Origin: a virus
Lineage: Duplodnaviria; Caudoviricetes
Reading direction: 5' to 3' (one strand)
Length of the DNA stretch: 57,695 nucleotides
IMG/VR virus record: IMGVR_UViG_3300027903_000007
Coordinates: 1 to 57,695 of that record
The translations under genes and the position numbers were made by a program. Shown piece by piece: positions 8,243-42,882 of this stretch. How positions within the stretch are numbered: position 1 is the stretch's first letter; each line of letters starts with the position of its first letter. Under the pieces are notes generated by a model. It was not told where the DNA came from. It ran no database searches and worked only from the letters and a program-made list of their open reading frames with translations.

Positions 8243-8942
8243 CAGTTGGGTCTAAGAATTTTCTTGGCGGTAGGCCCTAGCTGACCATTCTGATGGGCCT
8301 GTTTGACTATCTCATAGAAGTCAATCGGGGGCATGGGGAACATGCCTGCGTCTTGTATCCTGATTTGGCCTTCGTCCTCAAACATGCAAATGACAATGCA
8401 TGCCGTGGCGTGCAGTTTTCGAGTCAGCTGTTTGGCTTCCTTAGTCATTTTAACTAAGAGCTCAGCTTTGTCGCGTGCTGTCAGCTTTGGCAGCTTTTCG
8501 ATGATTAGTTTATCCGGATCATCAGTCATTGTAGTCTCCTTGAAGAATACGAATCATCCTGAGGCGAAGTTCTCTTTTTTCTGAGAACTTATGTGCCATC
8601 CATCTAAACATAGGTGGAAGGTCCTCCCATGTAGAGCCTGCATACTGTTCAAGACGACCGTCTGCATCAATCAACAGAAGTGCTAATGCAAACTTTTGAG
8701 CAGGAACGTCTGTATCAGCTTCTGCTAATTTGGCAGCGTCAATAGGATTTAGTGATCTTCGAATGTTCATCTTTCCTCACTTTAGCCAGTGCACGTTGCG
8801 CGGCTTTGATCTGTCCTTGCGTGTTCAAGCCCGCTATCCTGCGCTTGGCGCGCAGGATGCGCAACTCATGTAACCACCAATAGCGCAATTTGAAATATTC
8901 AGGTGTGCGCAGGGGTGGCCTAAGTCTGATCCTTTTTACCAA
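8242..8942 (-). CDS. Three small hypothetical genes (8242-8529, 8522-8770, 8739-8942)
   Basis: Overlapping or abutting ORFs in operon orientation. Confidence 0.55.
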
Positions 8943-9399
8943 ACTTTACCTCCCACAATACTCGACCAACACCTCCGTTGCCAATTGCATCCCGCAAATA
9001 AGAATACTTCAAACTTGATTGAGCCCATGATTTTCTAGCTTTAAGTTCTTTAACGCGTACAAATCCAGCAGCTTTCAGGCTGCCTCCAGTTTCATCTTGT
9101 TGAGTATAAGTTATTACTCTTTGATAACCCATGGCTTTACATGCACGCATTGAAGCCCCATACAACATGGAATTAACATTCTTAGTTCCATCTGTGCAAG
9201 TGCGATTTATTTCAGCAGTTAATCCATCATCAAAATGACGGGCAATTGGTCGTCCTACCATTGCTACCCCAACAAGCTTGTCATTATTTTCTACACTTAT
9301 TGAGAATTTATGACCGCGTGGAGCCTTATTATGTCGATGCAATGCAGTGACAAAAGCACATGCTTTTCTGAATGTAATTGGGCGAATAACCAAACTCAT
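8920..9399 (-). CDS. XF1762 family / Mom-like GNAT-fold protein
   Basis: 'FVTALHRH..PRGHKFSI..GVAMVGRPIAR..EINRTCTDG..SMLY..ITYT..ETGGSLKAAGF'. Confidence 0.75.
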   Translation of the reverse strand: MSLVIRPITFRKACAFVTALHRHNKAPRGHKFSISVENNDKLVGVAMVGRPIARHFDDGLTAEINRTCTDGTKNVNSMLYGASMRACKAMGYQRVITYTQQDETGGSLKAAGFVRVKELKARKSWAQSSLKYSYLRDAIGNGGVGRVLWEVKFGKKDQT

Positions 9400-11660: not shown

Positions 11661-12167
11661 TTATATACTCTTTTTCTTAAACATTTTAAGAATCATATGT
11701 CCCATGTTTGACTTCAGATAATCAGGGAAAGCATTGTCTACTATTTCATATATACGGGGCAGGTTATAGATCAATGCTCCAACGGATGGGGTGGCCCCTC
11801 GCTCCTTCAAATCATAAGCTATCAAACCAAATATCATTCTAAGAAAGCCTGTCTGGGTAATTTTGTTGCTATCCCATCCCTTGAAATACTTATTAAAGAA
11901 AATGATCAAACTGGGGAAGTTAGCTTCATAATGCTTGACAAGGGCTGGGGGTAGGCTGGAATAGGGCATGGGGCGGCTTATAGCGGCTGTCAGCGCTTCA
12001 AAAATGGTTTCAGGGGCCGTAGTAGCCCCATTTGAAACGTTGCTCACACGGCCCCCCAGCAAGGATATGGTTATAGCCTTAACTGCCTCCAAATCGGCAC
12101 GGTTCAGGTTTGGTAGTGCGGCAAGGATTTCATCCTTATAGATGTTGGTTGTATCTAACTTGGGCAT
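11661..12167 (-). CDS. Hypothetical protein
   Basis: Start MPKLD (about 12167) is more plausible than the TTG in the track, which runs deep into the HNH gene. Confidence 0.6.
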   Translation of the reverse strand: MPKLDTTNIYKDEILAALPNLNRADLEAVKAITISLLGGRVSNVSNGATTAPETIFEALTAAISRPMPYSSLPPALVKHYEANFPSLIIFFNKYFKGWDSNKITQTGFLRMIFGLIAYDLKERGATPSVGALIYNLPRIYEIVDNAFPDYLKSNMGHMILKMFKKKSI

Positions 12168-12516
12168 TGGTAGTCTTTCTTTTGAACTCCCTGTAGTAGG
12201 TTCTATAGGCATCAACACAAAGCTGACATCTACAGTTCTGACGTCGATAATATTGAGGAGTCCCATGAACCGAAGCATGAACTTCTTTATGATGTTCAAT
12301 ACAACGAAGTTCACATTTACTAAGCTCGTCAAAAACATTCTTAGAGGAGTAGCGCTTTCCTATTGTAAAAGACTTCGATTTTGAATCTTTATGATGAAAT
12401 TGAAGTCTTTCGACGGAGCCACAAACAACACACTTCCCACCAAGCAATGCCATGAATTGCGTTTTGCGACGATAATAGTGACGTAATTGAGGGCTTTGTT
12501 CTTTCATCGTCGTCAT
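12136..12516 (-). CDS. HNH endonuclease
   Basis: 'GGKCVVCG..LQFHH..KCELRCIEHH..H' plus a 'CRCQLC' tail. Confidence 0.75.
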   Translation of the reverse strand: MTTMKEQSPQLRHYYRRKTQFMALLGGKCVVCGSVERLQFHHKDSKSKSFTIGKRYSSKNVFDELSKCELRCIEHHKEVHASVHGTPQYYRRQNCRCQLCVDAYRTYYREFKRKTTNAQVRYNQHL

Positions 12517-14860: not shown

Positions 14861-14949
14861 GTGGTTCTCTTCCTGTTTTAGAGCTCCTCAGTTTGATCAA
14901 AAGTGAGCGCTCAAACCCACTTTTGCATATGGCGGGTGCCGCCATATTT

Positions 14950-15339
14950 CTATTGGCCATTAGGCCAAAACTTGAACCTATCAGCCTGCCCTAGCTGTAT
15001 GAGCCTAACATGGGCAACGGTAGCGCCATGTGGCCCAGCCAATGCCCTAAGCATGCTTTGCCTAGCTGCATCACGGGGCCTGCTACCGCGCTTAATAGCC
15101 ACATAAACAGCGCTGGCGGCATTGCTACGGCCTTGGTCATTATAAGTGTTATATCCCAAGCAGATTCTGAGAGCCGTAGCTGGGCCGCGCCTATAGCCGG
15201 GCCGGACCCACATTATAGTAACCATATCGGCGCGAATTGTTTTGTGTGTTTTTCTTTCGATAATAGCCATGGCTGGCATATTGAGCATCGCAGCTCTCCA
15301 GAGCGCGCGCCAATATTTTGGCTCGTGGGTCATTCTCAT
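14950..15339 (-). CDS. Basic hypothetical protein
   Basis: 129 aa ORF with an AGGAAA SD. Confidence 0.5.
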   Translation of the reverse strand: MRMTHEPKYWRALWRAAMLNMPAMAIIERKTHKTIRADMVTIMWVRPGYRRGPATALRICLGYNTYNDQGRSNAASAVYVAIKRGSRPRDAARQSMLRALAGPHGATVAHVRLIQLGQADRFKFWPNGQ

Positions 15340-16379: not shown

Positions 16380-16910
16380 TTAAACTTTTGCTACTTTAAG
16401 AAAGTATCTTGTGATGGGGCGTTGGCCTTTACGTTGCTCCTTAACACGTTCGACCTTGGCACCATTTTCCTCGAGGGAGTTGAGAACGTTCAGTTGAACA
16501 CTCCCAACTACAGCCTTTACTTCTTCCAGAGATGCACCGCTCTTACGAGCGTACATGGCTACAGCTTTGGATTTGGCACTTCCTTTACGAAATCCCCAAA
16601 TATCCCGTTCTACCTTGCTTTCAGCCTTTGGCTTGGCAGCCTTTACCTTATTATGGGCTTTTGCTGCCCTTACTGTGGCTTTAGGTGCGTTTTTTGCCTT
16701 AGCTAGGGCTTTGGCAGTAGCCTTTTTCACGGGCTTACCAGTGGCCTTTACAGGGGCGTGGTCTTGACCATTATTTTTATCGCTGGCTTTGGTCCGAGCC
16801 GGGCGAGACTCAACTACGCTATCTGCTGCCATGAGCATAAACTCTGCTTTGTTATTGGCATCCCTTATTAAAAATTCAGGAATATCCAAAGGGTGTGTGA
16901 TTTTTATCAC
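16380..16910 (-). CDS. Histone-like K/A-rich protein with a DUF3489-like winged helix
   Basis: KA-rich tract, then 'WGFRKGSAKSKAVAMYARKSGASLEEV'; TTGACA just upstream; start uncertain. Confidence 0.65.
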   Translation of the reverse strand: MIKITHPLDIPEFLIRDANNKAEFMLMAADSVVESRPARTKASDKNNGQDHAPVKATGKPVKKATAKALAKAKNAPKATVRAAKAHNKVKAAKPKAESKVERDIWGFRKGSAKSKAVAMYARKSGASLEEVKAVVGSVQLNVLNSLEENGAKVERVKEQRKGQRPITRYFLKVAKV

Positions 16911-18093: not shown

Positions 18094-18180
18094 GCCTTTT
18101 TCTCCTATTAATGAAGCATTAGTGCTTCAAGAAGCAAGTAACTTGTGTTACGTGTTTCTTGAAATACTAAGGAAGTGAGT

Positions 18181-18627
18181 ATGAGTAGATTGAAATCTAA
18201 AAGATATCTTTTAAGTGATCATAAGGCGCATGCTAAAAGCCGTGACATTGAATTTTTCTTTACTTATGAAGAGTGGCTTGCTTGGTGGGTAGAACAATTG
18301 GGGCCTGAATGGAAAAGCTTGCGTGGCAGGAAACGTGGTCAATATGTGATGGCAAGATTTGGTGACAAAGGACCTTATTTAAAAGACAATGTTAAGTGTA
18401 TTACACATGGGCAAAATGTTAAAGATGCTGCAAATAAAGGTGGTAAGGGAGTTGGACATAAATTGAATGCTCAACAAGTGAAATTGATATTTGCTTCTAA
18501 AGAAACTCAGCGTGTATTAGCTGTGAAATATGGAGTAAGTGAACGGTTAATTCGCCTGATAAAAAATAAACAGGTTTGGTTAACCGTTCTGCAGTCTTTA
18601 CAATCAGATAACATTGGTATTACTTGA
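18181..18627 (+). CDS. Free-standing beta-beta-alpha-Me (HNH-like) endonuclease with a C-terminal HTH
   Basis: 'AKSRDIEFFFTYEEWLAWW..GQYVMARFGDKGPY..NVKCI..QN'; AT-rich; antisense to its neighbours. Confidence 0.75.
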   Translation: MSRLKSKRYLLSDHKAHAKSRDIEFFFTYEEWLAWWVEQLGPEWKSLRGRKRGQYVMARFGDKGPYLKDNVKCITHGQNVKDAANKGGKGVGHKLNAQQVKLIFASKETQRVLAVKYGVSERLIRLIKNKQVWLTVLQSLQSDNIGIT

Positions 18628-28803: not shown

Positions 28804-29103
28804 ATGGTTCAAACTCCGAAACGAGCTTTTCAATATCATCGCAATAACGCGAGAAGACGGAAAATTGAATTTAACTTTACATTTGAAGAATGGGTTAAAT
28901 GGTGGGAGACTAATTTAGGGCTTGATTGGTATTTAAAACGTGGATGCAAATCAGGGCAGTACGTAATGGCTAGGAAGCGAGATAGAGGTGCTTATGAAGT
29001 AGAGAATGTTAAATGTATTCTTTGTAATTTAAATAATCTTGAAAGTATGTACGGAGAGGGTAGGAATCACCCTCTCCGTAGGAGAAACATTCAGTCGCCG
29101 TGA
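28804..29103 (+). CDS. Free-standing HNH-like endonuclease (paralog of 18181-18627)
   Basis: 'NARRRKIEFNFTFEEWVKWW..GQYVMARKRDRGAYEVENVKCI..N'. Confidence 0.75.
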   Translation: MVQTPKRAFQYHRNNARRRKIEFNFTFEEWVKWWETNLGLDWYLKRGCKSGQYVMARKRDRGAYEVENVKCILCNLNNLESMYGEGRNHPLRRRNIQSP

Positions 29104-30519: not shown

Positions 30520-31901
30520 GATTTTCTCCTCCTGTTTGATAATCATGATGATCATCGGAGGTGACAGCAACAAAGACATTCAGCTGCACTCATTTGGGGG
30601 AATGAGTCGGGGTATTTGCAGCTTTGTTCCCTATCGCTTCAGGGGGCTTGGTGGAAAAGCGATAGTTGCCTGAGCACTGTCACCACCGATAATCAAAGGT
30701 GATGAAAGGAGCTGGCCCGTAGGCCAACCCCCTTCACCTTTGTAAACAGAAGGAGGAGATATTTCACCAATGCCCATTTATGCGCAAAGCAAACTTTACC
30801 GGCAGCTGCATTAGGTTTGGGCAAACAGATAACAAGTTGATTGGTTTGCCGTTGCGTTTGAGGGGTATTAATAACTCAGGGGTAGTTTCAGAATAGAGTG
30901 TAGTGATGCTGTGTAATTGCATTCATGCTGCACATCCAAGCTTTAGTGCCGTTGCTTTATTTGCAGTTGGATGACCTGCCTACGTACCCGCGCCGAACCT
31001 AAACGGTTACAGCGGCTGTAGGTGTGGAACCCTACGAGAATTATACTTATAGGTCAGTTTGTGCGGCATTGAGTTAAGAACCCATGCCAAACGCGCCTAG
31101 CAGCCCTTAGTGGTGCCCTTGCTGAAAAGGGCTAGTACCCTAGCTAAAATTTGAAATAGCTCATTATGAGCCATTTGTGGCCCGCCTAAGGGCTATTTTA
31201 GCGTTGTAATACCGTGACTTACATTTTGACATGCAAAACCTGCCGAATTTAGTTTTAAACAGGTTTGCACATGAATGCTAATTCTTCAGCTGCTTTACTT
31301 GAGGCAAAATGGTGCATTGGTGACCGTGGCCCATGCTGGCATGTTCGGGTTTGTCAACCGTTAGCGCCTTTTATTATGCGCCTATGGCTTTACACCGTGC
31401 GCCGCATATGGCGGCATCATGCTAGCTTGCGCATGTTTCAGCGCGGGCTCAATCCGGGGCAGGTATGCTTTCACTGCTAGTGCCAGTTTGACCGGGGTAG
31501 GCTTCAATGGAAGCGCTTGTTTGTGCAGCGCCGTCATAGTGACATAAGCCTTGACCATGTAACCAGCGGGCTTGATTTGCCCTTTTCCTTTGGGGCTTAG
31601 GGCTGAGGAGCGCCGTAGCGTTCAGCTTGTAACCTTCATAGCTTAGGGGTGAGGACTGACCAGATTCACCTTGTCACCTTAGCAGCCTAGAGTTCCTGCG
31701 TTTATTGGCCGGTTTAGTGTCACGCCTTAGTGCACTCCTATTGCGGCTGGCTCACCGCGCCAGCTAAGCCTTTGAAGGGCTTAGCTGACTTTTTGCGCCA
31801 CCTGAATTCGTGCCGTGAACAGGCGCAAATCAGGCAGCAGTGCCCAACACTAACCCGGTCAAAATGTGTGCAAAGCCAGAAGTTACGCTTCTTCACAAGT
31901 T

Positions 31902-32460
31902 TTATGGAGGTGATGTTTCCGCTTTATCCCTGATCAAAAGCATTTTATAGATGGTGAGACCATGAGGGCCGGATAGAGCGCGACAGATTTCAATATCTCT
32001 AAATGTAAAATTGGTTTTCATATCCGCTAAATTCTTATATCCTAGAAGCTCACACAAAGTAACTGGATTCATGTTTCCTTGACCTAAATATGGATCAAGA
32101 TTACTATAGACCCTGATTCGTAATTCTGCATTTTCATCTCGTTGGTCCTGTGTCAGTTTCATTGACCTTATCCTTCCATTTGATCACCAGCATTTTGTAG
32201 ATGGTAAAGCCATGCGGCCCACATAGCAGTTTTAAGATGTGAGTTGATTCATCTGTCCATTCTTCAGTCATTTGTTTAATATCCTTGTATCCAAGGATAT
32301 TGGCTATGTGTCGATGTGATGGATGTGGAAATGGATTAACTAGAACAGAATCAATCAATCCTTTGGATTTCCATTCCCAAAGTCGACCATTTAAATGAGT
32401 GTAAGGGATACTGCCTAGCATATACCAATCCTCTTTGAAAAGTGGACTCATGTGAACCAC
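31902..32460 (-). CDS. Two 'GPH' family paralogs (31902-32162, 32134-32460)
   Basis: Shared 'LGYK..M..L.GPHG.TIYKML.I'. Confidence 0.7.
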
Positions 32461-33359
32461 ATCCTGATCAATTTGCGGTCTTTGTCGATGACATTGCTGT
32501 TGCGTCTGTGGATGTATTGGTATTGATCAAAGATCAAGGTATCACCAGCTGACCATGAATAGGGCACGGCGCATTTATCCAAGGCAATGTAGAGGGCCTG
32601 CAGCGCATCCGTGATTTCACGGATAGAAGGCTGTTCATGAAGTGATAAGCCCGGCAAGGCACTGACATGCCCGCGTGAAGCCAATAGCATTCCTTTGATA
32701 TTAAAAAGAGGATGGGCATAAATGCCATTATGTCCAATATAATGAGATTGTAGCTTGTCAACGGTATTTAGATGTTTTTGGCTTAGCAAATATTGGACTT
32801 CAACGACATGAGACAACTCGGTTTCAGCTAATCCGCAACCGGCATCCAAGCAATGCAACAGCACGTATTGAGGTGGCACGGGATGATACAATCCATCTGA
32901 ATGCCAATCAAAGTATTCAGTACGGTTAGAATAATCGTTGGGATTGTCTTGATGCATGGCAATAGTGTAATCCAAACCAGTGGTTTGCTTGATATGTTTC
33001 GATAGAATTGTAGCCCATTTATTGGGATCAAAATCAGGCAGATTGCAGTAGAATGGAGTTTTAAACAATTGATAATGGCTCATGTTTGTAACCTTTTGAT
33101 CAACACAGGATTTCTTTAAAACCAGTATTTTATAGATAGTAGGACCATGAGGACCACATAACAATTCGAGCTTTTCACGGTCTTCTTCCCGGAAGTTATA
33201 CATCATGATCTCACCATTGGGGTAATCCAGCAGCCAAGCTAGATGGGTATAGGCCGGATCATCTCCCATTCCAATGTTGATTATAGGGACTTTTTCGACA
33301 ACACCCCAATCTATTAACAATTCAGCGACTTGTATTCGCATCTCCCATGTGGCGATCAT
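32448..33359 (-). CDS. TauD/TfdA-like Fe(II)/2OG dioxygenase in frame with an N-terminal 'GPH' domain
   Basis: 'WHSDG..YVLLHC..WSAGDTLIFDQ..IHRR..RKLIRMW'; internal ATG at 33083. Confidence 0.75.
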   Translation of the reverse strand: MIATWEMRIQVAELLIDWGVVEKVPIINIGMGDDPAYTHLAWLLDYPNGEIMMYNFREEDREKLELLCGPHGPTIYKILVLKKSCVDQKVTNMSHYQLFKTPFYCNLPDFDPNKWATILSKHIKQTTGLDYTIAMHQDNPNDYSNRTEYFDWHSDGLYHPVPPQYVLLHCLDAGCGLAETELSHVVEVQYLLSQKHLNTVDKLQSHYIGHNGIYAHPLFNIKGMLLASRGHVSALPGLSLHEQPSIREITDALQALYIALDKCAVPYSWSAGDTLIFDQYQYIHRRNSNVIDKDRKLIRMWFT

Positions 33360-33613
33360 CTTACTAGCATCATTTTGAAAATGGTCACACCATGAGGTGG
33401 ACAGAGCATTTTGAGACGATCAATGTCGGATGAAGATAAGTGCTGGATGCAGTTTAGTTCAAAGGTGTTGAGATGGCCTAGAGTAGACCAAATTAACTGA
33501 TCTAAATCGTCCGCGGAACTGGTATTTATCTTCATCCCGGATACTAGACCAGCATCAGTTCTAAGATAGGACCAAGCACGGTAGAATATGGCGTGTTTGT
33601 CTTCTTTATTCAT
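33356..33613 (-). CDS. 'GPH' family paralog
   Basis: 'RLKMLCPPHGVTIFKMMLVR'. Confidence 0.65.
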   Translation of the reverse strand: MNKEDKHAIFYRAWSYLRTDAGLVSGMKINTSSADDLDQLIWSTLGHLNTFELNCIQHLSSSDIDRLKMLCPPHGVTIFKMMLVR

Positions 33614-33716
33614 GGAAGAGACCTTTCATTTGAAAATAGCGGCCTTTTATTATCACCTGAAACAAAAACCAAATACCAGTAGAAGTTGGTGTATCTCAGC
33701 AAACAGAGGTCGAGGT

Positions 33717-34166
33717 ATGAAAACAGCGTATTATGATCAAAAGAGTAATGCCAAGAAGCGTGGAATAGCCTTTGAGTTTACATATGAAGATTAGTTAGCT
33801 TGGTGGATAGAACAGTTAGGGCCTGATTGGTTCACAAAGCGTGGATGCAAAGCAGGACAATATGTAATGGCTTGCAACTATGACAGAGGAGCATATAAAC
33901 GTGGAAATGTGAAAGCTATAACTATTGAGGAAAATACGGCGCGTTATAATAGACGACGTAAATTAGTTAGTACTAGAGGATGGAAGTGTCTTTCAGATGA
34001 GGTGGTTAAAGGTGTCTACCTTGATCCAAATGATTATCTTACAATTGCTAGAAAGTACAAGATTACAAAGCATAAGATTCAGTGTATCAAGAGGAAACAT
34101 TATTATAGGAAGATAACTGATGCAGTGGATGCAATCTGCATTATCAAGGAGAATGGAGATTGTTAG
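33717..34166 (+). pseudogene. HNH-like endonuclease with a premature amber codon
   Basis: One frame reads 'FEFTYED*LAWW..GQYVMA..GAY..NV'; TAG at 33792-33794 sits where both paralogs have Trp. Confidence 0.75.
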
Positions 34167-34249: not shown

Positions 34250-34371
34250 CTTCGTCAGATGAGCATAAAGATTAAGACGAGGAAAACGATTTTAGTCGTC
34301 TTAATAAAGTGATTCTTCGTCAGATGAGCTTGAAATTGAAGATGAGCCATTTCTGAGTTGTCGTCTTAATA
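34250..34371. repeat. Two degenerate 65-bp tandem units
   Basis: CTTCGTCAGATGAGC at 34250 and 34315; GTCGTCTTAATA at 34295 and 34360. Confidence 0.8.
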
Positions 34372-34386
34372 GGTGGAAGCTTCTTC

Positions 34387-34432
34387 GACTTAATAGTCTT
34401 CTTCTTCAAGTGAAGAAGAAGACTATTAAGTC
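34387..34432. repeat. Perfect 22-bp inverted repeat with a 2-nt spacer
   Basis: GACTTAATAGTCTTCTTCTTCA-AG-TGAAGAAGAAGACTATTAAGTC. Confidence 0.95.
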
Positions 34433-34761
34433 ACCTGAGGAAGTCACAGGTATCAGGATAAAACAAAAGCGAGGCAATTGCCCCGCTCCTGCTCTCATCG
34501 TCGCACTTGCAAAGTTTGCTGCAATAGCCATGGCTGAGTGCTAAACCATTTCACAGCCGCCAGCCAATTGCGCCAGCTAGTCACATGCGCGTCATGTTGC
34601 ATCATTCAAACCTTCAATCAGTTTTGCTGCAAGCCGTGTTAACAAGCGCGGTTTGCGCGGTGGTAGTGAAGCCTGCGCTAGTTCAAGCTCATTTTGAACT
34701 AGCATTAGCAATAGCCAAAGTTCAGTTTCACTTAAACGCATTGCTTTGCCCTCAAAGTAAT

Positions 34762-34786
34762 GCCGCCCGCATTGGCGCGGGCGGCG
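34762..34786 (-). terminator. GC hairpin, probable terminator
   Basis: GCCGCCCGC-N6-GCGGGCGGC just after the 34798 stop; weak U-tract. Confidence 0.55.
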
Positions 34787-34797
34787 GTTGACTTACA

Positions 34798-35379
34798 TCA
34801 CAGTTGGTTGTTGGGCAAGTCAGTGACATGATTTTCAGCATGTTCAACTAACTCATGCACCGCGTCACTTGATGGGCCAAGTGCAGCACCATCAAGCTCA
34901 TTAGCCGGTACGGGCGTGACATGGCCCGCCTTGGGCTTGCGCGCCTTGCTGGCAGGCTTTTTGACCTTGGCCTTGCCTTTGGGCTGGTCAGTTTCAGCTT
35001 GACCAGCAGCCACCTTAGCCGCATCAGCCTTAGCCACGCGCTCAATGCGTTGTTTGCCTTTTGCCGTGACTTCATTGCGGTACACCTTGTGACCATTGTC
35101 AGCCAATGGCGCAGGCATTTCACGCAAAAAAGCATCAGCAATCAAACCACGCATTTTGTTCAGTTGCGGCGCACCGCAAGCCATCACAATTTGGCTACCA
35201 GTTGCACCGCAGTCACGCGTTGACATGGCAATGGCCAAGGCCTGCTTACCGGGGCGGCACCCAAGCCCGTGAACGCTGGCCAGCTGATCAACTGTAGGCT
35301 TAGGGCCTAACAGTTTCAGCTGCCAGTTTTTGAACAACGGGGCGTAATGGGTTGCGGCGTTGGTTTCAGTGTTTGACAT
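34798..35379 (-). CDS. Probable immediate-early protein, DUF3489-like winged helix plus a basic tail
   Basis: 'LGCRPGKQALAIAMSTRDCGATGSQI'; has its own promoter and terminator. Confidence 0.7.
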   Translation of the reverse strand: MSNTETNAATHYAPLFKNWQLKLLGPKPTVDQLASVHGLGCRPGKQALAIAMSTRDCGATGSQIVMACGAPQLNKMRGLIADAFLREMPAPLADNGHKVYRNEVTAKGKQRIERVAKADAAKVAAGQAETDQPKGKAKVKKPASKARKPKAGHVTPVPANELDGAALGPSSDAVHELVEHAENHVTDLPNNQL

Positions 35380-35509
35380 GATATTGACCTTTGAAGTTTT
35401 GACATAGTTGAACCGCTTACCCGTGACCTGCCCGTTTCAATGGGCACACTGTGAGGTATGGGGGCCTGAGCCCCAACGCTGCTATATGCAACGCCGCGTC
35501 AACAATGCA

Positions 35510-35538
35510 AACATATACCCTCTCACAATGTTTGTCAA
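35510..35538 (-). promoter_or_regulatory. Sigma70-type promoter overlapped by two 18-bp direct repeats
   Basis: TTGACA-N17-TATGTT; GTCAACAWTGCAAACATA at 35498 and 35534. Confidence 0.7.
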
Positions 35539-35676
35539 CATTGCAAACATAAATAAACAGAATATTTGATCAATTAATGTTACAAGCTATGCACGCAAAC
35601 ATGCATATCATCCACCGCAACTCAAGTGAGTTTGTCAGGTAAGTCGTTCACTGGACGAAGCAAGGTAAGAGGATCA

Positions 35677-35996
35677 TCTATGGAAGTAAGAGGAGGAAAT
35701 TACAGGAGTAGATAAACTGAGGAAAAGAGGTAGATGATAAGATGGTCCCCCTCCCCCCATGGCAAGGGCATGTCCTCCACTTACAGTAGATAGTAAAAAA
35801 TCCCAATACTTCCACGGAAGTAAGAAGGTTGAATCCTCTCCGTGGTATGCTATCGATTTATTTAAGTTACTTCCATGGATAGTAGAAGTACGAATCCTCT
35901 CCGTGGTATGGATAGTAAAAAATCTCGATGCTTCCACGGATACAAGAAACTTGTATCTAGATAGATCAAATTTATTCAAGCTGCTTCCACATGTAG
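35677..35996. repeat. Mosaic iteron-like repeat region
   Basis: GAATCCTCTCCGTGGTATG x2, GATAGTAAAAAATC..CTTCCACGGA x2, ATTTATTYAAGYTRCTTCCA x2. Confidence 0.75.
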
Positions 35997-36014
35997 TCCT
36001 ATATATGCACATGT

Positions 36015-37366
36015 TCAATCATCTTGGTTCTTTGTGGAAGCTTCTAGCCGTTGCAGGGCATACATGGTCAGTAAAGTAGCAATATGAGGAGATTGCAGTA
36101 TCTGATAGCGGTATACCCCCATGGGACTTAGTTTGACTATATCTCGTTGATACAAATAGGGGTAGGTATCTGGTGCTAAATACTCCTTGAAACAGGGGCA
36201 CACTTCCATCAAATGTTGAGGTAGCATGAGCACATGCTTCCAGTAGATGCCAGAAGCTTCTATAAATTCAACTCGAGTGATTTTTCTAGCTTCCATGTTG
36301 GGCTATCCAGATTGCCAGCAAGGTGACTGAATATGGATTGGATAGCCATTGATGGTGGCGGTATCCATCCGGGGTCAATTCAATCAGCATGGGATAATGG
36401 CTATGCTTGAACGGGATAGGGATGGCATCCTTAAAAGGTACGGTTGGCATGAACAACCTGAAGTCAGGCGCTTGTTTTATCTTCAGCGCCTTAACCATAC
36501 TGTCGTATTGAGCCATCGCCGCGAAGTAACCTGACCTGCTGATGCACGGATTATCTTTAATCATGGTATCTTTCCTTGCCATCCTGTTTTGGCTTTAAAG
36601 ACTTTCAACAAGGCGTAGTGGTGTGGGCTGGCCAGTATCATGATCTTGTTATAGGTTGGTTCAGTCACTTTCCATCTCCAACCGTATCGTGAGTCAGCCA
36701 CAAGCTTATGCTTTCCAATGAATGTGCTGAAGCGATGCGGGCCTTGGTGCAGAGAGGCGGTTTTGCCACCGTTCATGACTTTGTTCCAGTTATGTACAGC
36801 GTTAAGTACTTCTGACCCGTTAATGAAATATTCTGTCATTTGATCACTTAATCATGTTCCGCGCTTTGTACATGGCTAACAGGGTTTTGTAGTGTGGGCC
36901 GTTCAATGCCTTGATCTTGCGGGCTGATTCTTCAGATACTTTAATGTCAAATCGATCCCTGCCCCACCATGTGACCACTTTTAGTTTTTCGACTTGTTCC
37001 TCTTCACCAAGAAATTTCAGGTAGTGCCACATGGAAATGGATTTTAGTCCATGGAACTCATACCAACGTTCTGCTGCTATTTTTAGTTCTTGTATTGTTA
37101 TGCTCATTGTTTTCATCTAGCATCCTTAGTTCAAGCATCCTCATGATGGTATTGAAATACGGCCCACCTAATACATCCAATTTTCTTTGGATCTCTGGAT
37201 TAGTGATGTCAACAATGAAATTTCTATCTTGCCAGAAATCATTCCATGGATCATCAAGCAGGACTGCCAGCATTCGGTAGGGTAGTGGATTGGGTCTGGG
37301 ATCAACCCCAAGCCATCTTTCTATGATGTAATCTAAGAGATCTTTGTAGTAAGTGAGGTCTGTCAT
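36015..37366 (-). CDS. Five divergent 'GPH' family paralogs (36015-36296, 36286-36582, 36561-36839, 36844-37116, 37058-37366)
   Basis: C-terminal L-x-[GSN]-P-[HY]-x-x-[TA]-[LI]-[LM] in each. Confidence 0.65.
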
Positions 37367-39964: not shown

Positions 39965-40556
39965 GATAATTAAATTACCAATGCCTCAAGTTGTTCCTCG
40001 TGTTGGAAATTATTTAGGTAGACCAGGTCCAACAACAAGCCAAAAGAAGTTAAAATCTTTGCGCAGGCATGCAGTCCCACCGGGGGGTATTTTGAATCCT
40101 TATGGCTGTTATGGTAATACGCGCAAGCAACGTTATAGGATTACTTGGTTTGGCTTGAAACTCAAACCTGCCCTGAGGGAGGAAGCATTGAAGAGGAACA
40201 GAATTAAACTTCAACAAAAGAAAGCGATTCAGCTTGAGTTGCATGAACTGCAAGCTTTAGCTCGTGAGAATGCTACGGCGGCAATGCACACTCTTGTTGA
40301 GATTATGAAGAATAAGCGTGCACCCGAGGCAAATAGAATTGCTGCATCAGCAGTTGTTCTTGATCGTGGTTATGGGAAAGCTTCCCAAGTGAGTATAACT
40401 GCAAGTGTCACCAATGGCAAAGCTGATAACCTCGATTCAACCGAACTCGACAAGCGAATTAGCCGAGCTCTCAAGAGAGTTGAGGATCTTACAAACCGAA
40501 CGCCAAAAGCGGGAACGGGCCAAAAACGACCTGTTAACCTACGCCTCTATAATTAA
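39957..40556 (+). CDS. Probable terminase small subunit
   Basis: Lies just before TerL; 'AMHTLVEIM..RIAASAVVLDRGYGKA..LDSTEL'. Confidence 0.7.
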   Translation: MVKIIKLPMPQVVPRVGNYLGRPGPTTSQKKLKSLRRHAVPPGGILNPYGCYGNTRKQRYRITWFGLKLKPALREEALKRNRIKLQQKKAIQLELHELQALARENATAAMHTLVEIMKNKRAPEANRIAASAVVLDRGYGKASQVSITASVTNGKADNLDSTELDKRISRALKRVEDLTNRTPKAGTGQKRPVNLRLYN

Positions 40557-42882
40557 TATCCCTAGTGGCCCGCTGCGGGAGGAGAATGAAGACGAGGTCG
40601 AACAGTTTCGACCTCGTAAGCATTTGTTCGGTGCGCATCATTTGCTCTGGCTTGATTGTCTTCAGCAAGTTGAAGATGGCAAGATAAAGCGGCTGATGGG
40701 GTTGCTGCCTCCCGGCAGTGGCAAATCAATTTATACTTCAGTTGTTTTTCCAACTCATGTCATGGGACGTTTTAAAGGCTCATCCATCATTGTGGCGAGC
40801 TATGGTTCAGAACTGCCGCGTAAGTTTGGCAGACGTGCCCGCTCAATAGTTCAACAGCCAATTTATAATCGTATTTTTGGCACTTTGCTTTCTGATGAAA
40901 GCAAAGCAGCTGATGAATGGGCGCTTAAGAATAGCAGTGAGTGGATGGGGGCTGGTATCTTGACCGGCATTACTGGTAACCGCGCTGACGGCATTGTGTG
41001 GGACGATTTGATCAAAGGTCGTGAACAGGCTGATTCTGAAGTTATCAGGCAAAAAACATGGGAAGCTTATGGTGATGATCTTCTCACACGTAAGAAACCC
41101 CAAGCTTGGGAAATTGGCGTTACCTGTATGGCAGGAGACACTCAAGTATTGATGGGTAATGGCGCTAATAAGAATTTGCGTGATATTAAGTGTGGTGATT
41201 GTGTTGCTTCTTACTATGAAGGGAAAATTGTTACTTCAAAAGTTTTAAACTGGAGAAATTGTGGTCCTGATAACGTCTTTACTATAAAGACGTTATCAGG
41301 CATTACCGTCGAGGCAAATGCGAGGCATCCGTTTCTCGTTTGCGAAAACGGAGTGTCAACATGGATAAGAACGAAAGACTTACGCCCGGGCCACAGAATG
41401 CTCCGGGTCAATGGGGAAAGTGGAAAGGTAAAACTTGCATCACAGAAGGATGCAACAAGCCAGTTTCAGCACGCGGCTTCTGTGTCACACACTACAATAG
41501 AAAGCGATGGGCTGATGGCGTTCGGCCACCATCAACAGGCGCTGTTTCAGTTCATAATGCGCATCTCAAACATAGGTATGGAATTACTGCTGAGGATTAT
41601 GACCGCATACTTGCGGAGCAAAACGGCCGTTGCGCGATATGCCGTTGTTCAAACCCCAAGACCCCAAGACGCTGGAGACGGCAATTCGTCCCAGATCATT
41701 GCCACGACAGTGGGCGGTTCAGGAGCCTTCTTTGCAATTCCTGCAATATGGTCGTCGGCTACGCTAACACCGCAGAGAATGCGCAAGCCATTGCGGACTA
41801 TCTCCGACTTCACGACGGATCCGATAGCTGAGATTACATATTCAGGCATTGAGGAAGTCTTTGATGTCCAGATCGATGGGACTGAGAATTTTATAGCAAA
41901 TGGGCTAATTTCTCATAACACGAGATGGCACGAAGATGATCCAGCGGGGCGCATCCTACCCGAAAATTATGGTGGGCAAAGTGGGTTATTGCAATGTCGA
42001 GATGGTAATGAATGGTACGTTGTATGCCTTCCTGCTGAGTGCGAACGCACTGATGATATTTTGGGACGAAAAATAGGTGAGATACTTTGGCCTGAATGGT
42101 TTACGGAGGAAATGTTTAGAGCACCTAAACGCATTCCACGTACTTGGTCGTCCCTGTATCAGCAGCGCCCAGCTCCTGACACCGGCATATTGTTTAAATC
42201 TGAATGGCTGAAATCATATGAGCAAAATCCACGCACAGGATACCCAGTAAATTTTGAGCCCGGTGATCTTAACATTTATGGTGCCAGTGATTATGCGGTA
42301 ACTAAAGATCGTGAGAATTACACGGTTCATATCGTGGTGGGGGTGGATAATAAAAGTAATATTTACATTCTTGATCTTTGGCGTAAGCAAGAGAGTTCAG
42401 ATGTTTGGGTTGAGAAATTTTGTGATTTGGTCAAATTTTGGAAGCCTATAGGGTGGGCTGAAGAAACAGGTCAGATCAATAAAGGTGTTGGCCCGTTCCT
42501 TGTAAAACGTATGCGTGAACGACAGGCATATGTCGCTCGTGCGCAATTTCCATCTACTAAGTCAAAGGCTCAGCGTGCTCAGAGTATCATTGGTCGTATG
42601 GCACAAAATGGACTTTATTGTCCTTTTGGTGCATCTTGGTTTGCTGAGTTCAGAAGGGAACTACTTTTGTTTGATGCGGGTACTTTTGATGATCAAGTGG
42701 ATGCCTTGAGTTTGATAGGGATGGTGTTAGATAGAATGATCTCAGCTGACAGTTCTTCTCAAGTTAAGGAAGAACCGAAAGTATTTTCTACTTTTCCCGG
42801 TTTGTGTACAGTTACTTTGGAAGATTTGTTTGAAGCTAATGAGATGCGTAATACCACGACTGGTATTTTAAGGATACATTAA
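40405..42882 (+). CDS. terL: Terminase large subunit containing an intein
   Basis: 'PPGSGKS', 'IVWDD', 'T/TRWHEDD', 'LYQQRP', 'SDYA', 'FDDQVDA'; the start could be ATG 40414. Confidence 0.93.
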   Translation: MSPMAKLITSIQPNSTSELAELSRELRILQTERQKRERAKNDLLTYASIINIPSGPLREENEDEVEQFRPRKHLFGAHHLLWLDCLQQVEDGKIKRLMGLLPPGSGKSIYTSVVFPTHVMGRFKGSSIIVASYGSELPRKFGRRARSIVQQPIYNRIFGTLLSDESKAADEWALKNSSEWMGAGILTGITGNRADGIVWDDLIKGREQADSEVIRQKTWEAYGDDLLTRKKPQAWEIGVTCMAGDTQVLMGNGANKNLRDIKCGDCVASYYEGKIVTSKVLNWRNCGPDNVFTIKTLSGITVEANARHPFLVCENGVSTWIRTKDLRPGHRMLRVNGESGKVKLASQKDATSQFQHAASVSHTTIESDGLMAFGHHQQALFQFIMRISNIGMELLLRIMTAYLRSKTAVARYAVVQTPRPQDAGDGNSSQIIATTVGGSGAFFAIPAIWSSATLTPQRMRKPLRTISDFTTDPIAEITYSGIEEVFDVQIDGTENFIANGLISHNTRWHEDDPAGRILPENYGGQSGLLQCRDGNEWYVVCLPAECERTDDILGRKIGEILWPEWFTEEMFRAPKRIPRTWSSLYQQRPAPDTGILFKSEWLKSYEQNPRTGYPVNFEPGDLNIYGASDYAVTKDRENYTVHIVVGVDNKSNIYILDLWRKQESSDVWVEKFCDLVKFWKPIGWAEETGQINKGVGPFLVKRMRERQAYVARAQFPSTKSKAQRAQSIIGRMAQNGLYCPFGASWFAEFRRELLLFDAGTFDDQVDALSLIGMVLDRMISADSSSQVKEEPKVFSTFPGLCTVTLEDLFEANEMRNTTTGILRIH
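41125..41919 (+). mobile_element. Intein (265 aa) in TerL
   Basis: Begins CMAGDT; block B 'ANARHPF'; ends 'VFDVQIDGTENFIANGLISHN'; +1 residue is Thr; removal restores 'GVT-TRW'. Confidence 0.92.
41361..41831 (+). CDS. Endonuclease VII-type homing endonuclease overprinted within the intein
   Basis: Different frame from TerL, GGAG SD 7 nt upstream; 'RYGIT..QNGRCAIC..DHCHDSGRFRSLLCNSCN..G'. Confidence 0.85.
   Translation: MDKNERLTPGPQNAPGQWGKWKGKTCITEGCNKPVSARGFCVTHYNRKRWADGVRPPSTGAVSVHNAHLKHRYGITAEDYDRILAEQNGRCAICRCSNPKTPRRWRRQFVPDHCHDSGRFRSLLCNSCNMVVGYANTAENAQAIADYLRLHDGSDS

Follow-up and report, generated by a model that had tools for sequence, protein, structure and literature searches.

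Within a 57,695-nt stretch of DNA from an uncultured soil phage of the Caudoviricetes (IMG/VR record IMGVR_UViG_3300027903_000007; hereafter the window, a fragment estimated to be 62% complete), a single promoter-to-terminator unit on the minus strand encodes an unnamed 193-aa protein with a predicted winged-helix domain and a lysine-rich tail. The unit lies in the early leftward gene block and coincides with a zone in which the trinucleotides TCC, TCG and TCT (TCB; VGA in reverse complement) are absent from both strands. The features considered here are as follows.

34504–35520 (no strand): zone with no TCC/TCG/TCT and no AGA/CGA/GGA on the plus strand, that is, none of the word on either strand.
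35510–35538 (minus strand): sigma-70-type promoter, TTGACA-17-TATGTT.
35498–35551 (no strand): two 18-nt direct repeats (GTCAACAWTGCAAACATA) 36 bp apart that overlap the promoter; operator-like.
35474–35496 (minus strand): leader hairpin with a 9-bp stem and an ATATA loop, 108 nt upstream of the ATG.
34798–35379 (minus strand): gene for the 193-aa protein, with a predicted winged-helix domain (about residues 1–105), a long helix (106–128), a Lys/Ala/Pro-rich disordered tail and a short conserved C-terminal tip.
34762–34785 (minus strand): GC-rich hairpin just after the stop codon (10 pairs) with a weak T tail.
34592–34741 (minus strand): 49-aa ORF with a GAGGG ribosome-binding site; cargo specific to this lineage, with no relative in the other loci.
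34460–34486 (minus strand): 7-bp hairpin followed by TTTTGTTTT, the likely terminator of the unit.
34387–34432 (no strand): perfect 22-nt inverted repeat built of TCTTCTTCTTCA/TGAAGAAGAAGA, the window's copy of the GAAGA-rich element that follows the unit in related loci.
30758–31877 (no strand): second, partly depleted zone, non-coding and conserved in blocks with the related locus L001.
14950–15339 (minus strand): 129-aa gene of the small 'GPH' helix-turn-helix paralogue family, whose 3′ 205 bp form the third gap (14949–15154).

The promoter has 10 of 12 consensus matches, although such matches are not above the shuffle expectation for the region; the same TTGACA-17-TATGTT is seen in L001. 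The single AGA at 35521 lies in the promoter spacer, and the word-free zone of the window thus starts inside the promoter. The ATATA loop of the leader hairpin, with different, complementary stems, occurs in 7 of 11 loci. At the other border, the first sites of the word reappear at and in the likely terminator, which was read from the sequence and from a palindrome search but was not listed by a terminator scan. Of the known RNA families, only the tRNA-Thr reached a gathering score, and weak microRNA-like hits on the 34387–34432 palindrome are chance.

Counting the word across the window confirmed the preliminary description, which had placed a site-free island at 34504–35520. TCB/VGA occurs 4142 times in the window (one per 14 bp), yet the longest site-free gap spans 1020 bp between site starts 34501 and 35521, followed by gaps of only 205, 167 and 153 bp. 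The 1017-bp island holds 0 TCT/AGA, 0 TCG/CGA and 0 TCC/GGA, against 15.5, 8.3 and 12.8 per 1000 positions elsewhere, and all 62 TC/GA steps (both strands) are TCA/TGA. Within the 193-aa gene, shuffling of synonymous codons gave a mean of 27.4 sites (minimum 16 of 5000 shuffles) and recoding with genome codon usage a mean of 37.2 (minimum 21 of 5000), compared to none observed; all 18 of 18 Asp/Glu codons follow a codon ending in T. Dinucleotide-preserving shuffles of the island (3000 replicates) gave a mean of 39.0 and a minimum of 23 sites, and in 200 shuffles of the whole window the longest gap averaged 105 bp and never exceeded 175. Of 1407 strand-symmetric three-letter IUPAC words, TCB scored highest (64.9); the next four scores belong to three subsets of TCB (TCY, TCK, TCS) and to AKA (AGA plus ATA), all at the same place, whereas the best word outside the island scored 12.5. 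Among 102 ORFs of the window, the gene is the only extreme outlier (0 against 37.4 expected, z −7.7; next z −4.4). The weaker islands noted in the preliminary description are also real, with 23 sites against 80.4 expected at 30758–31877 and 1 against 19.2 at 14886–15153.

The gap is conserved. Eight other lineages, 49–71% identical in DNA apart from one close relative (L001, 89% identical to the window in the gene), keep gaps of 768–1412 bp around the same gene. Within the gene, 0 sites against 27–45 expected were counted in each of eight lineages (the window and the related loci L001, L004, L006, L007, L008, L009 and L011), while L010 has two; the minimum over 2000 shuffles per locus was 10–30. 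Two partly relaxed loci, L003 and L005, have 14 and 11 sites, still below every shuffle. TCB is the top three-letter word in the window and in 6 of 8 further loci, and second in L004. In the related genome G4, the gene is likewise the only extreme outlier among 127 ORFs (2 against 31.4). Only 11 related loci could be read, all from one broad phage family; a DNA-pattern scan of viral contigs gave no new locus, nor did two further protein queries, and no DNA or protein match to the unit was found in cultured phages.

In its extent, the gap follows the unit. The zone starts 144–276 bp upstream of the ATG, in 7 of 9 loci ends 10–60 nt after a hairpin (in six of them followed by a T run), and covers cargo ORFs that differ in every lineage, although five of 9 lineages have no clear cargo ORF after the conserved gene. 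Arrays made of the word directly abut it: GAAGA/TCTTC occurs 38 times against 4.6 expected in the 150 bp after the zone over 9 loci, 29 of 43 VGAMGAVGA nonamers in 11 loci lie within 400 bp downstream, and L006 has four copies at 18-bp spacing. In contrast, the relaxed genome G2 has none near its copy. Depletion elsewhere is graded, as the second zone has 23 sites against 80.4 expected in the window, its counterpart in L001 32 against 76.7, and that in G4 9 against 45.9.

The 193-aa protein belongs to no Pfam or PHROG family, and a profile search of solved-structure sequences gave only chance-level matches to ribosomal protein eL42/eL44 (best E 0.045), while the ESM Atlas returned only unnamed viral clusters (best score 0.87). 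The structural model is confident over residues 11–120 (block mean pLDDT 88–95) and gives weak winged-helix matches (MarR-type at Foldseek E 9e-3, TFE-alpha at Z 5.6, and also TrmBL2, DnaD-N and MotA), with Z at most 5.6. Q72, L73, N74 and R77 of the putative recognition helix are invariant in 38 sequences.

We infer that purifying selection keeps this autonomous early transcription unit (promoter with two 18-nt repeats, leader of about 125 nt, 193-aa gene, 49-aa ORF and terminator) free of the duplex word. As tentatively envisaged here, the word is read on double-stranded DNA by a factor that is conserved across this phage family or its host group, rather than by a strain-variable restriction system. 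As depletion is complete in the unit but graded elsewhere, and arrays made of the word abut the unit, the reader more likely binds or marks DNA in a density-dependent way than cuts it. By inference only, our prime suspect is the unit's own product, a predicted winged-helix protein with a histone-H1-like tail, which might load onto VGA-bearing DNA, both host and phage, while its own promoter-to-terminator unit offers it no site and so stays transcribable. Such a 'self-blind' genome-coating or genome-marking system remains doubtful, and both the identity of the reader and what it does are speculative. A three-letter degenerate word is far below the usual specificity of a winged-helix domain, and as the rest of the phage genome carries the word at near-normal density (observed/expected 0.83–0.87), a coating protein would also sit on essential phage genes. 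Moreover, the relaxed loci keep the recognition helix (L003 has GAPQLNKMRG unchanged, and L005 differs at two neighbouring residues only), and the GAAGA arrays could equally be terminators or sites of another factor, the element in the window being a palindrome between convergent units. Complete absence in eight lineages would also fit an all-or-none agent such as a nickase.

Indeed, only slightly less plausible, though still unlikely in our view, is that the unit is hardened against a frequent-cutting nickase, nuclease or base-modifying enzyme that reads TCB/VGA early in infection, be it a conserved host defence or the phage's own host-shutoff weapon. As the infecting genome is a single copy, one hit would abolish an indispensable early product, perhaps a counter-defence or protective DNA-binding protein. 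The zero tolerance in eight lineages, the involvement of both strands and the prospect of the whole cassette surviving as the only long intact fragment speak for this view, as does the precedent of viral enzymes reading three-letter degenerate words (Nt.CviPII ^CCD and Nt.CviQII R^AG; PMC3017599). G4 and G2 also carry an N6/N4 DNA methyltransferase, which was not seen in the incomplete window. However, G2's island is relaxed, and no candidate enzyme shared by the island-bearing genomes was found in Pfam scans of 90 window ORFs and 43 G4 ORFs, which revealed only homing-type HNH/NUMOD, a PD-(D/E)XK nuclease, SbcCD-like proteins and methyltransferases of unknown specificity. A comparison of gene content between the island-bearing (window, G4) and relaxed (G2) genomes, with too few genomes to be informative, yielded a sigma-like factor, a DoxX protein and an HTH-endonuclease-like gene, none of them convincing. 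The other early genes are not hardened, partial depletion gives no protection against cutting, and host restriction specificities normally vary, yet the word is the same in the lineages compared. The preliminary description had proposed that the segment is exposed first and evades a defence reading TCB/VGA, with the encoded protein neutralizing it. A reader of the word on both strands is the sensible inference, but first entry could not be shown, as G2, called complete with terminal repeats, has only a 50-bp exact end overlap and G4 and the window have no end repeat; about 2 kb of ordinary-density early genes also lie between the divergent promoter region and the island. The suggested link to DarT-type toxins is not supported, since TNTC, the four-base DarT2 motif, occurs 15 times and TTT 45 times in the island, and E. 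coli DarT1 has no consensus motif (PMC11543638).

The alternative offered by the preliminary description, that the phage marks the word genome-wide and leaves its early unit unmodified, was not shown and appears improbable; no read-level data were available. In this scenario, a bulky modification hampers the unmodified host RNA polymerase, and the product of the word-free unit opens up the rest of the genome. The host-type promoter, a Mom-family gene (PF25680) in the window at 8920–9399 (30.4 bits against Pfam's cut-off of 27.1), a dCTP-deaminase-like gene and SAM methyltransferases in G4, and the graded depletion of a non-coding zone, which fits a load effect, would agree with it. Yet the Mom family was found in 0 of 5 related records, including the complete island-bearing G4, and the TGT/DpdA family (PF01702) in 0 of 5, two of them complete, albeit by a loose first look that may miss distant DpdA. 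SASNY, the probable Mom context, occurs 63 times in the island on both strands, and GGC, apparently one of two motifs of the DpdA of phage CAjan, 65 times; neighbouring early genes carry TCB at normal density. Even less likely is a constraint on RNA imposed by an endoribonuclease of the MazF/PemK type, as in naturally ACA-less mRNAs. The gap matches a transcription unit, and three-letter words with one 'not-X' position (for example UAH) may be typical of such RNases, but VGA is equally absent from the same strand, sites of both kinds reappear at similar distances at both borders and return together in the relaxed loci, and the gap reaches into and upstream of the promoter (in other loci, 60–100 nt upstream of the leader hairpin). 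Mutation bias or composition, such as transcription-coupled deamination of TC, foreign origin or amino-acid content, is very unlikely to have removed the word. The island is indeed GC-richer than its surroundings (52.8% against about 45%; 4–9 GC points in all loci) and CAA/TTG is 1.5-fold enriched. However, shuffles that keep codons, amino acids or dinucleotides never fall below 10 sites, C-to-T decay would lower GC, and TCA is kept and even enriched (30.5 against 23.3 per 1000). In addition, the state is maintained at 49–71% DNA identity, and a paralogue of the same domain in G4 (82549–82902) has ordinary density. Codon bias of Ser/Arg/Gly alone was rejected, as the word is missing in all frames, across codon junctions and in non-coding leader and trailer DNA.

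We found no description of such a unit in print. Local motif avoidance is normally a faint statistical trace of restriction pressure, whereas here 0 sites are seen against about 40 expected per gene, for a word of only three letters, in at least eight lineages whose synonymous sites have long been scrambled. Such a signature, we infer, can only be kept if a single occurrence is costly, and points to a DNA-reading activity of a specificity class so far known mainly from chlorovirus nickases, or to a DNA-binding protein whose own gene is built to escape it. In the restriction-motif-free, first-injected leading regions of Autographiviridae phages (PMC12455610), which carry early functions, absence of the motif is likewise local and decides the outcome against Type I restriction even though the motif is present elsewhere in the genome. 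There, however, the motif is the long bipartite site of one identified system, differs from host to host and involves a few sites, compared to about 70 expected sites per kb here. The chlorovirus nicking/modification pairs match TCB in their scale of specificity, but those viruses protect their whole genome by methylation, and no nickase was identified among the ORFs scanned here. Phi29 p6 and T4 MotB (PMC3100819, PMC4974454, PMC7827196) are small, abundant early DNA-binding proteins that act on long stretches of DNA and shape early transcription or replication, yet have no sequence or family relation to the 193-aa protein. Variable small ORFs with a conserved helix-turn-helix gene behind a strong, repeat-bearing promoter may recall acr-aca type anti-defence operons (PMC13551039), although here the conserved gene comes first and carries a long basic tail, and cargo ORFs, unique to each lineage, occur in 4 of 9 lineages. 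The protein defines a new, unannotated family of about 300 clusters at 50% identity, and the finding gives a concrete handle on an uncultured phage family of about 93 kb from soil; two relatives sit on contigs binned with Acidobacteriota MAGs.

A three-letter word, TCB (TCC, TCG or TCT) together with its reverse complement VGA (AGA, CGA or GGA), occurred 4142 times in the window, or about once per 14 bp, yet not once between the site starts 34501 and 35521, thereby confirming the 1-kb gap noted in the preliminary description. The next longest gaps measured 205, 167 and 153 bp. Inside the 1017 bp, all 62 TC/GA steps (both strands) were TCA/TGA and GC was 52.8%, against about 45%. The gene for a 193-aa protein within this island (34798-35379, minus strand) contained 0 sites, far fewer than in any of the shuffled controls, and all 18 of its Asp/Glu codons follow a codon ending in T. 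In 200 shuffles of the whole window, the longest gap never exceeded 175 bp.

Table. Occurrences of TCB/VGA in shuffled controls.
Synonymous codons shuffled within the gene: mean 27.4, minimum 16 (5000 shuffles)
Gene recoded with genome codon usage: mean 37.2, minimum 21 (5000 shuffles)
Dinucleotide-preserving shuffle of the island: mean 39.0, minimum 23 (3000 shuffles)

A scan of all 1407 strand-symmetric three-letter IUPAC words, without prior choice, ranked TCB first with a score of 64.9. The next four scores belonged to three subsets of TCB (TCY, TCK and TCS) and to AKA (AGA plus ATA), all at the same place, while the best word outside the island scored 12.5. ATA/TAT was also absent for 670 bp inside the island (34711-35381; score 13.4). 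When five islands (4.8 kb) were pooled, no other three- or four-letter word was missing.

The 193-aa protein has no Pfam or PHROG family. Among 387 candidates in the 90% clustered collection it has 161 relatives at E up to 1e-3, all unnamed or 'hypothetical', and in 1.84 billion representatives it has 301 clusters at E up to 1e-3, 205 at 1e-10 and 66 at 1e-30. DNA could be read for 11 related loci (L001 to L011), all from one broad phage family, of which nine derive from viral contigs and two from contigs binned with Acidobacteriota MAGs.

Table. Word-free gap around the gene in related loci.
L001: 1412 bp
L002 (near-identical to L001): at least 803 bp, cut by the contig end
L004: 782 bp
L006: 805 bp
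L007: 852 bp
L008: 1266 bp
L009: 768 bp
L011: 1179 bp
L010: 825 bp with two sites
L003 and L005: partly relaxed

Per gene, we observed 0 sites in eight lineages, 2 in L010, 14 in L003 and 11 in L005, compared to shuffle means of 20-45 and shuffle minima that were always above the observed value. The conserved-domain DNA of these genes is 49-71% identical between lineages, except for the window and L001 at 89%, and the absence has therefore been maintained independently many times over. TCB was the top word of all three-letter words in 6 of 8 further loci and second in L004, but was not among the top three in L005, where its subset TCY ranked second.

The window is a fragment, estimated to be 62% complete, of a phage family whose complete members are about 93 kb, namely the genomes G2 (93,560 bp) and G4 (93,069 bp), which are collinear with the window. 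The major capsid protein is 87-93% identical among the three; its best match in a cultured phage is 53%, to a Bradyrhizobium phage, followed by Myxococcus Mx8. The family encodes a family A DNA polymerase, RecA, a clamp and clamp loader, DnaB- and SNF2-type helicases, a primase-like protein (a weak, sub-threshold DnaG match) and a terminase with an intein. In the window, the large terminase subunit (40405-42882, plus strand) is interrupted by this intein (Intein_splicing, E 6.2e-13), whereas the G2 and G4 homologues are about 270 aa shorter. G4 additionally has a NusG-like protein, a protein with sigma-70 region 4 and a DnaA-type HTH. The word-free unit always lies in the leftward block of small early genes, 2-4.5 kb from the divergent region that starts the structural genes.

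In the window, the unit and its immediate surroundings comprise the following elements:
35670-36050: repeat-rich non-coding stretch upstream of the unit
35538-35510, minus strand: sigma-70-type promoter TTGACA-17-TATGTT (although such matches are not above the shuffle expectation for the region), overlapped by two 18-nt direct repeats
35496-35474, minus strand: leader hairpin with a 9-bp stem and an ATATA loop
34798-35379, minus strand: gene for the 193-aa protein
34486-34460, minus strand: 7-bp hairpin followed by TTTTGTTTT, which we read as a terminator although the terminator scan did not list it
34387-34432: perfect 22-nt inverted repeat, TCTTCTTCTTCA/TGAAGAAGAAGA

The border site of the word-free zone, the AGA at 35521, lies in the promoter spacer. 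The leader is ~125 nt long, and its ATATA loop recurs in 7 of 11 loci on stems of different sequence, i.e. GCGTTGC/GCAGCGC, GTAGGTC/GGCCTAC, ATACCGGC/GCTGGTAT and AGGCGGC/GCCGCTT. Besides the window, the hairpin is present in the leaders of L001, L005, L006, L007, L008 and L010, with an invariant loop, covarying stems of 4-9 bp and a position 108-178 nt upstream of the ATG. It resembles a boxB-type or other protein-binding RNA or DNA hairpin, yet no Rfam family matched. The gene follows an AAGGT-type ribosome-binding site; a canonical GGAG site would contain the word. Downstream of the gene come a GC-rich hairpin, a 49-aa ORF with its own GAGGG site, and the terminator.

In related loci, the word-free zone starts 144-276 bp upstream of the ATG and, in 7 of 9 loci, ends 10-60 nt after a hairpin, which in six of them is followed by a T run. 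In the window and L001, the first sites lie in or just before the last terminator. Some lineages carry extra ORFs inside the zone, of 96 and 58 aa in L001, 138 aa in L008, 67 aa in L011 and 49 aa in the window, none of which has a relative in any other locus. The zones are 4-9 GC points richer than their loci, except in L006, where the difference is 1 point.

Directly downstream of the unit, by contrast, the word becomes unusually dense. Over nine loci, GAAGA/TCTTC occurred 38 times in the 150 bp after the zone, against 4.6 expected, and of 43 VGAMGAVGA nonamers in 11 loci (about 101 kb), 29 lie within 400 bp downstream of the zone. For instance, L006 has four copies at 18-bp spacing and L011 two copies 18 bp apart. 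In the window, the element takes the form of the 22-nt inverted repeat, and three of the window's 11 nonamers lie at 34275-34414, while G2, whose island is relaxed, has none near its copy. The stretch directly upstream of the unit (35670-36050) has 61-nt and 122-nt spaced repeats with TTCCAYGGAA-type palindromes, GAATCCTCTCCGTGGTATG twice, and more sites than expected (44 against 30.4 for the spurious ORF 35674-36018). It may be an operator or iteron array.

Plus-strand genes at 33588-34166, 28804-29103 and 18175-18627 sit in a minus-strand block and encode an HTH (sigma-70 region 4-like) plus an endonuclease-like domain. The copy next to the island carries one in-frame stop after ...FEFTYED, and G4 has a convergent homologue (84486-84968) about 340 bp from its island.

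The AlphaFold model of the 193-aa protein has a mean pLDDT of 72.9, with block means of 88-95 over residues 11-120 and a disordered tail, and shows a winged helix followed by a long helix. Matches to this predicted fold were weak and generic: the best Foldseek match was a MarR-family regulator at E 9e-3, and the best VIA-align match was TFE-alpha at Z 5.6, followed by ArsR/MarR/PadR regulators, the archaeal chromatin protein TrmBL2, DnaD-N and T4 MotA at Z 4-5. An alignment of 38 members revealed 23 invariant residues, among them Q72, L73, N74 and R77 in the helix we take to be the recognition helix. The tail is variable and rich in Lys, Ala and Pro, and the short C-terminal tip ends in QL or QA in most members. 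The genomes also hold shorter paralogues of the domain without the tail, the one in G4 (82549-82902) having ordinary word density. In addition, a family of at least eight small paralogous early proteins (about 85-130 aa; window 36015-37366, 33356-33613, 31902-32460, 14950-15339 and the N-terminus of 32448-33359) shares a ...GPH(G/Y)xT(I/L)(Y/F)K... motif and shows weak similarity to the winged-helix domain of the island protein. One copy is fused to a TauD-family dioxygenase (Pfam E 6.6e-16).

Taken together, the absence of the word is complete, affects both strands, is conserved, and is co-extensive with one promoter-to-terminator unit. In each genome this gene is the only extreme outlier, with 0 sites against 37.4 expected among 102 ORFs of the window and 2 against 31.4 among 127 ORFs of G4. 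We infer that purifying selection acts against a reader of the duplex word and, because the word is the same in all lineages, that this reader is conserved with the phage family or with its host group rather than being a strain-variable restriction system. Local motif avoidance as such is known. However, full-text literature searches on unmodified regions, restriction-site avoidance in early genes and motif depletion in leading regions found no description of such a feature, and a study of plasmid leading regions reports GC richness but no consistent depletion of 4-8 bp palindromes (PMC13478746). To our knowledge, it is the form observed here (absolute, three letters, unit-exact and family-wide) that is new, with a substantial chance that the underlying mechanism is new as well.

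Two features argue for a density-dependent reader that binds or marks, rather than cuts, DNA. Depletion is graded elsewhere, as a non-coding zone at 30758-31877 has 23 sites against 80.4, its counterparts in L001 and G4 have 32 against 76.7 and 9 against 45.9, respectively, and the relaxed loci are still below every shuffle. Moreover, arrays built from the word sit at the border of the unit. As the one gene always inside the zone encodes a predicted DNA-binding fold with an invariant putative recognition helix and a histone-H1-like tail, we tentatively favor a model in which this protein, or an activity it guides, is the reader and its own unit is built to be blind to it. This remains a hypothesis in the absence of binding data: three letters is very low specificity for a winged helix, the rest of the phage genome is full of the word, the relaxed loci keep the helix, and the arrays may simply be terminators or sites of another factor.

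A possible, though somewhat more doubtful, alternative is that the unit is hardened against a nickase, nuclease or base modifier. This would fit the zero tolerance and has precedent both in chlorovirus enzymes with three-letter words (PMC3017599) and in motif-free first-injected regions (PMC12455610). However, among the ORFs scanned no enzyme was found to be shared by the island-bearing genomes, the methyltransferase is also in the relaxed G2, and the other early genes are not hardened. Nor is first entry of this segment, as proposed in the preliminary description, shown, since no physical genome end is known. The preliminary description alternatively suggested genome-wide modification with an unmodified early unit, which we consider unlikely. 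A 159-aa Mom-family protein (PF25680, 30.4 bits against a cut-off of 27.1) is encoded in the replication module of the window (8920-9399, minus strand), but was found in 0 of 5 related records, no TGT family was found in the records searched, and the SASNY and GGC words, possible contexts of Mom- and DpdA-type modification, are not avoided. The link to DarT-type toxins made in the preliminary description is likewise not supported, as TNTC occurs 15 times and DarT1 has no consensus motif (PMC11543638). An RNA-level constraint appears very unlikely given the symmetric loss of the reverse-complement word and the reach of the gap into the promoter, and mutation bias or composition more improbable still in light of the shuffles, the higher GC and the retention of TCA.

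Across all ORFs of the window, G2 and G4, the word was mildly under-represented relative to recoding with genome codon usage (observed/expected 0.87, 0.83 and 0.85, respectively), with replication genes being lowest at about 0.6-0.7. Shorter word-free gaps (105-172 bp) recurred at homologous places inside two conserved genes of unknown function (window 16380-16910 and 11661-12338), namely at 16609-16762 and 11958-12063 in the window and at 71306-71472 and 62890-63062 in G2, i.e. even where the main island is relaxed. Finally, a 373-aa gene of 69% GC (90672-91793) in the 49% GC phage G4 produces an 802-bp stretch without any WAW word and is probably a recently acquired tail- or host-derived gene, which hints at a high-GC host.
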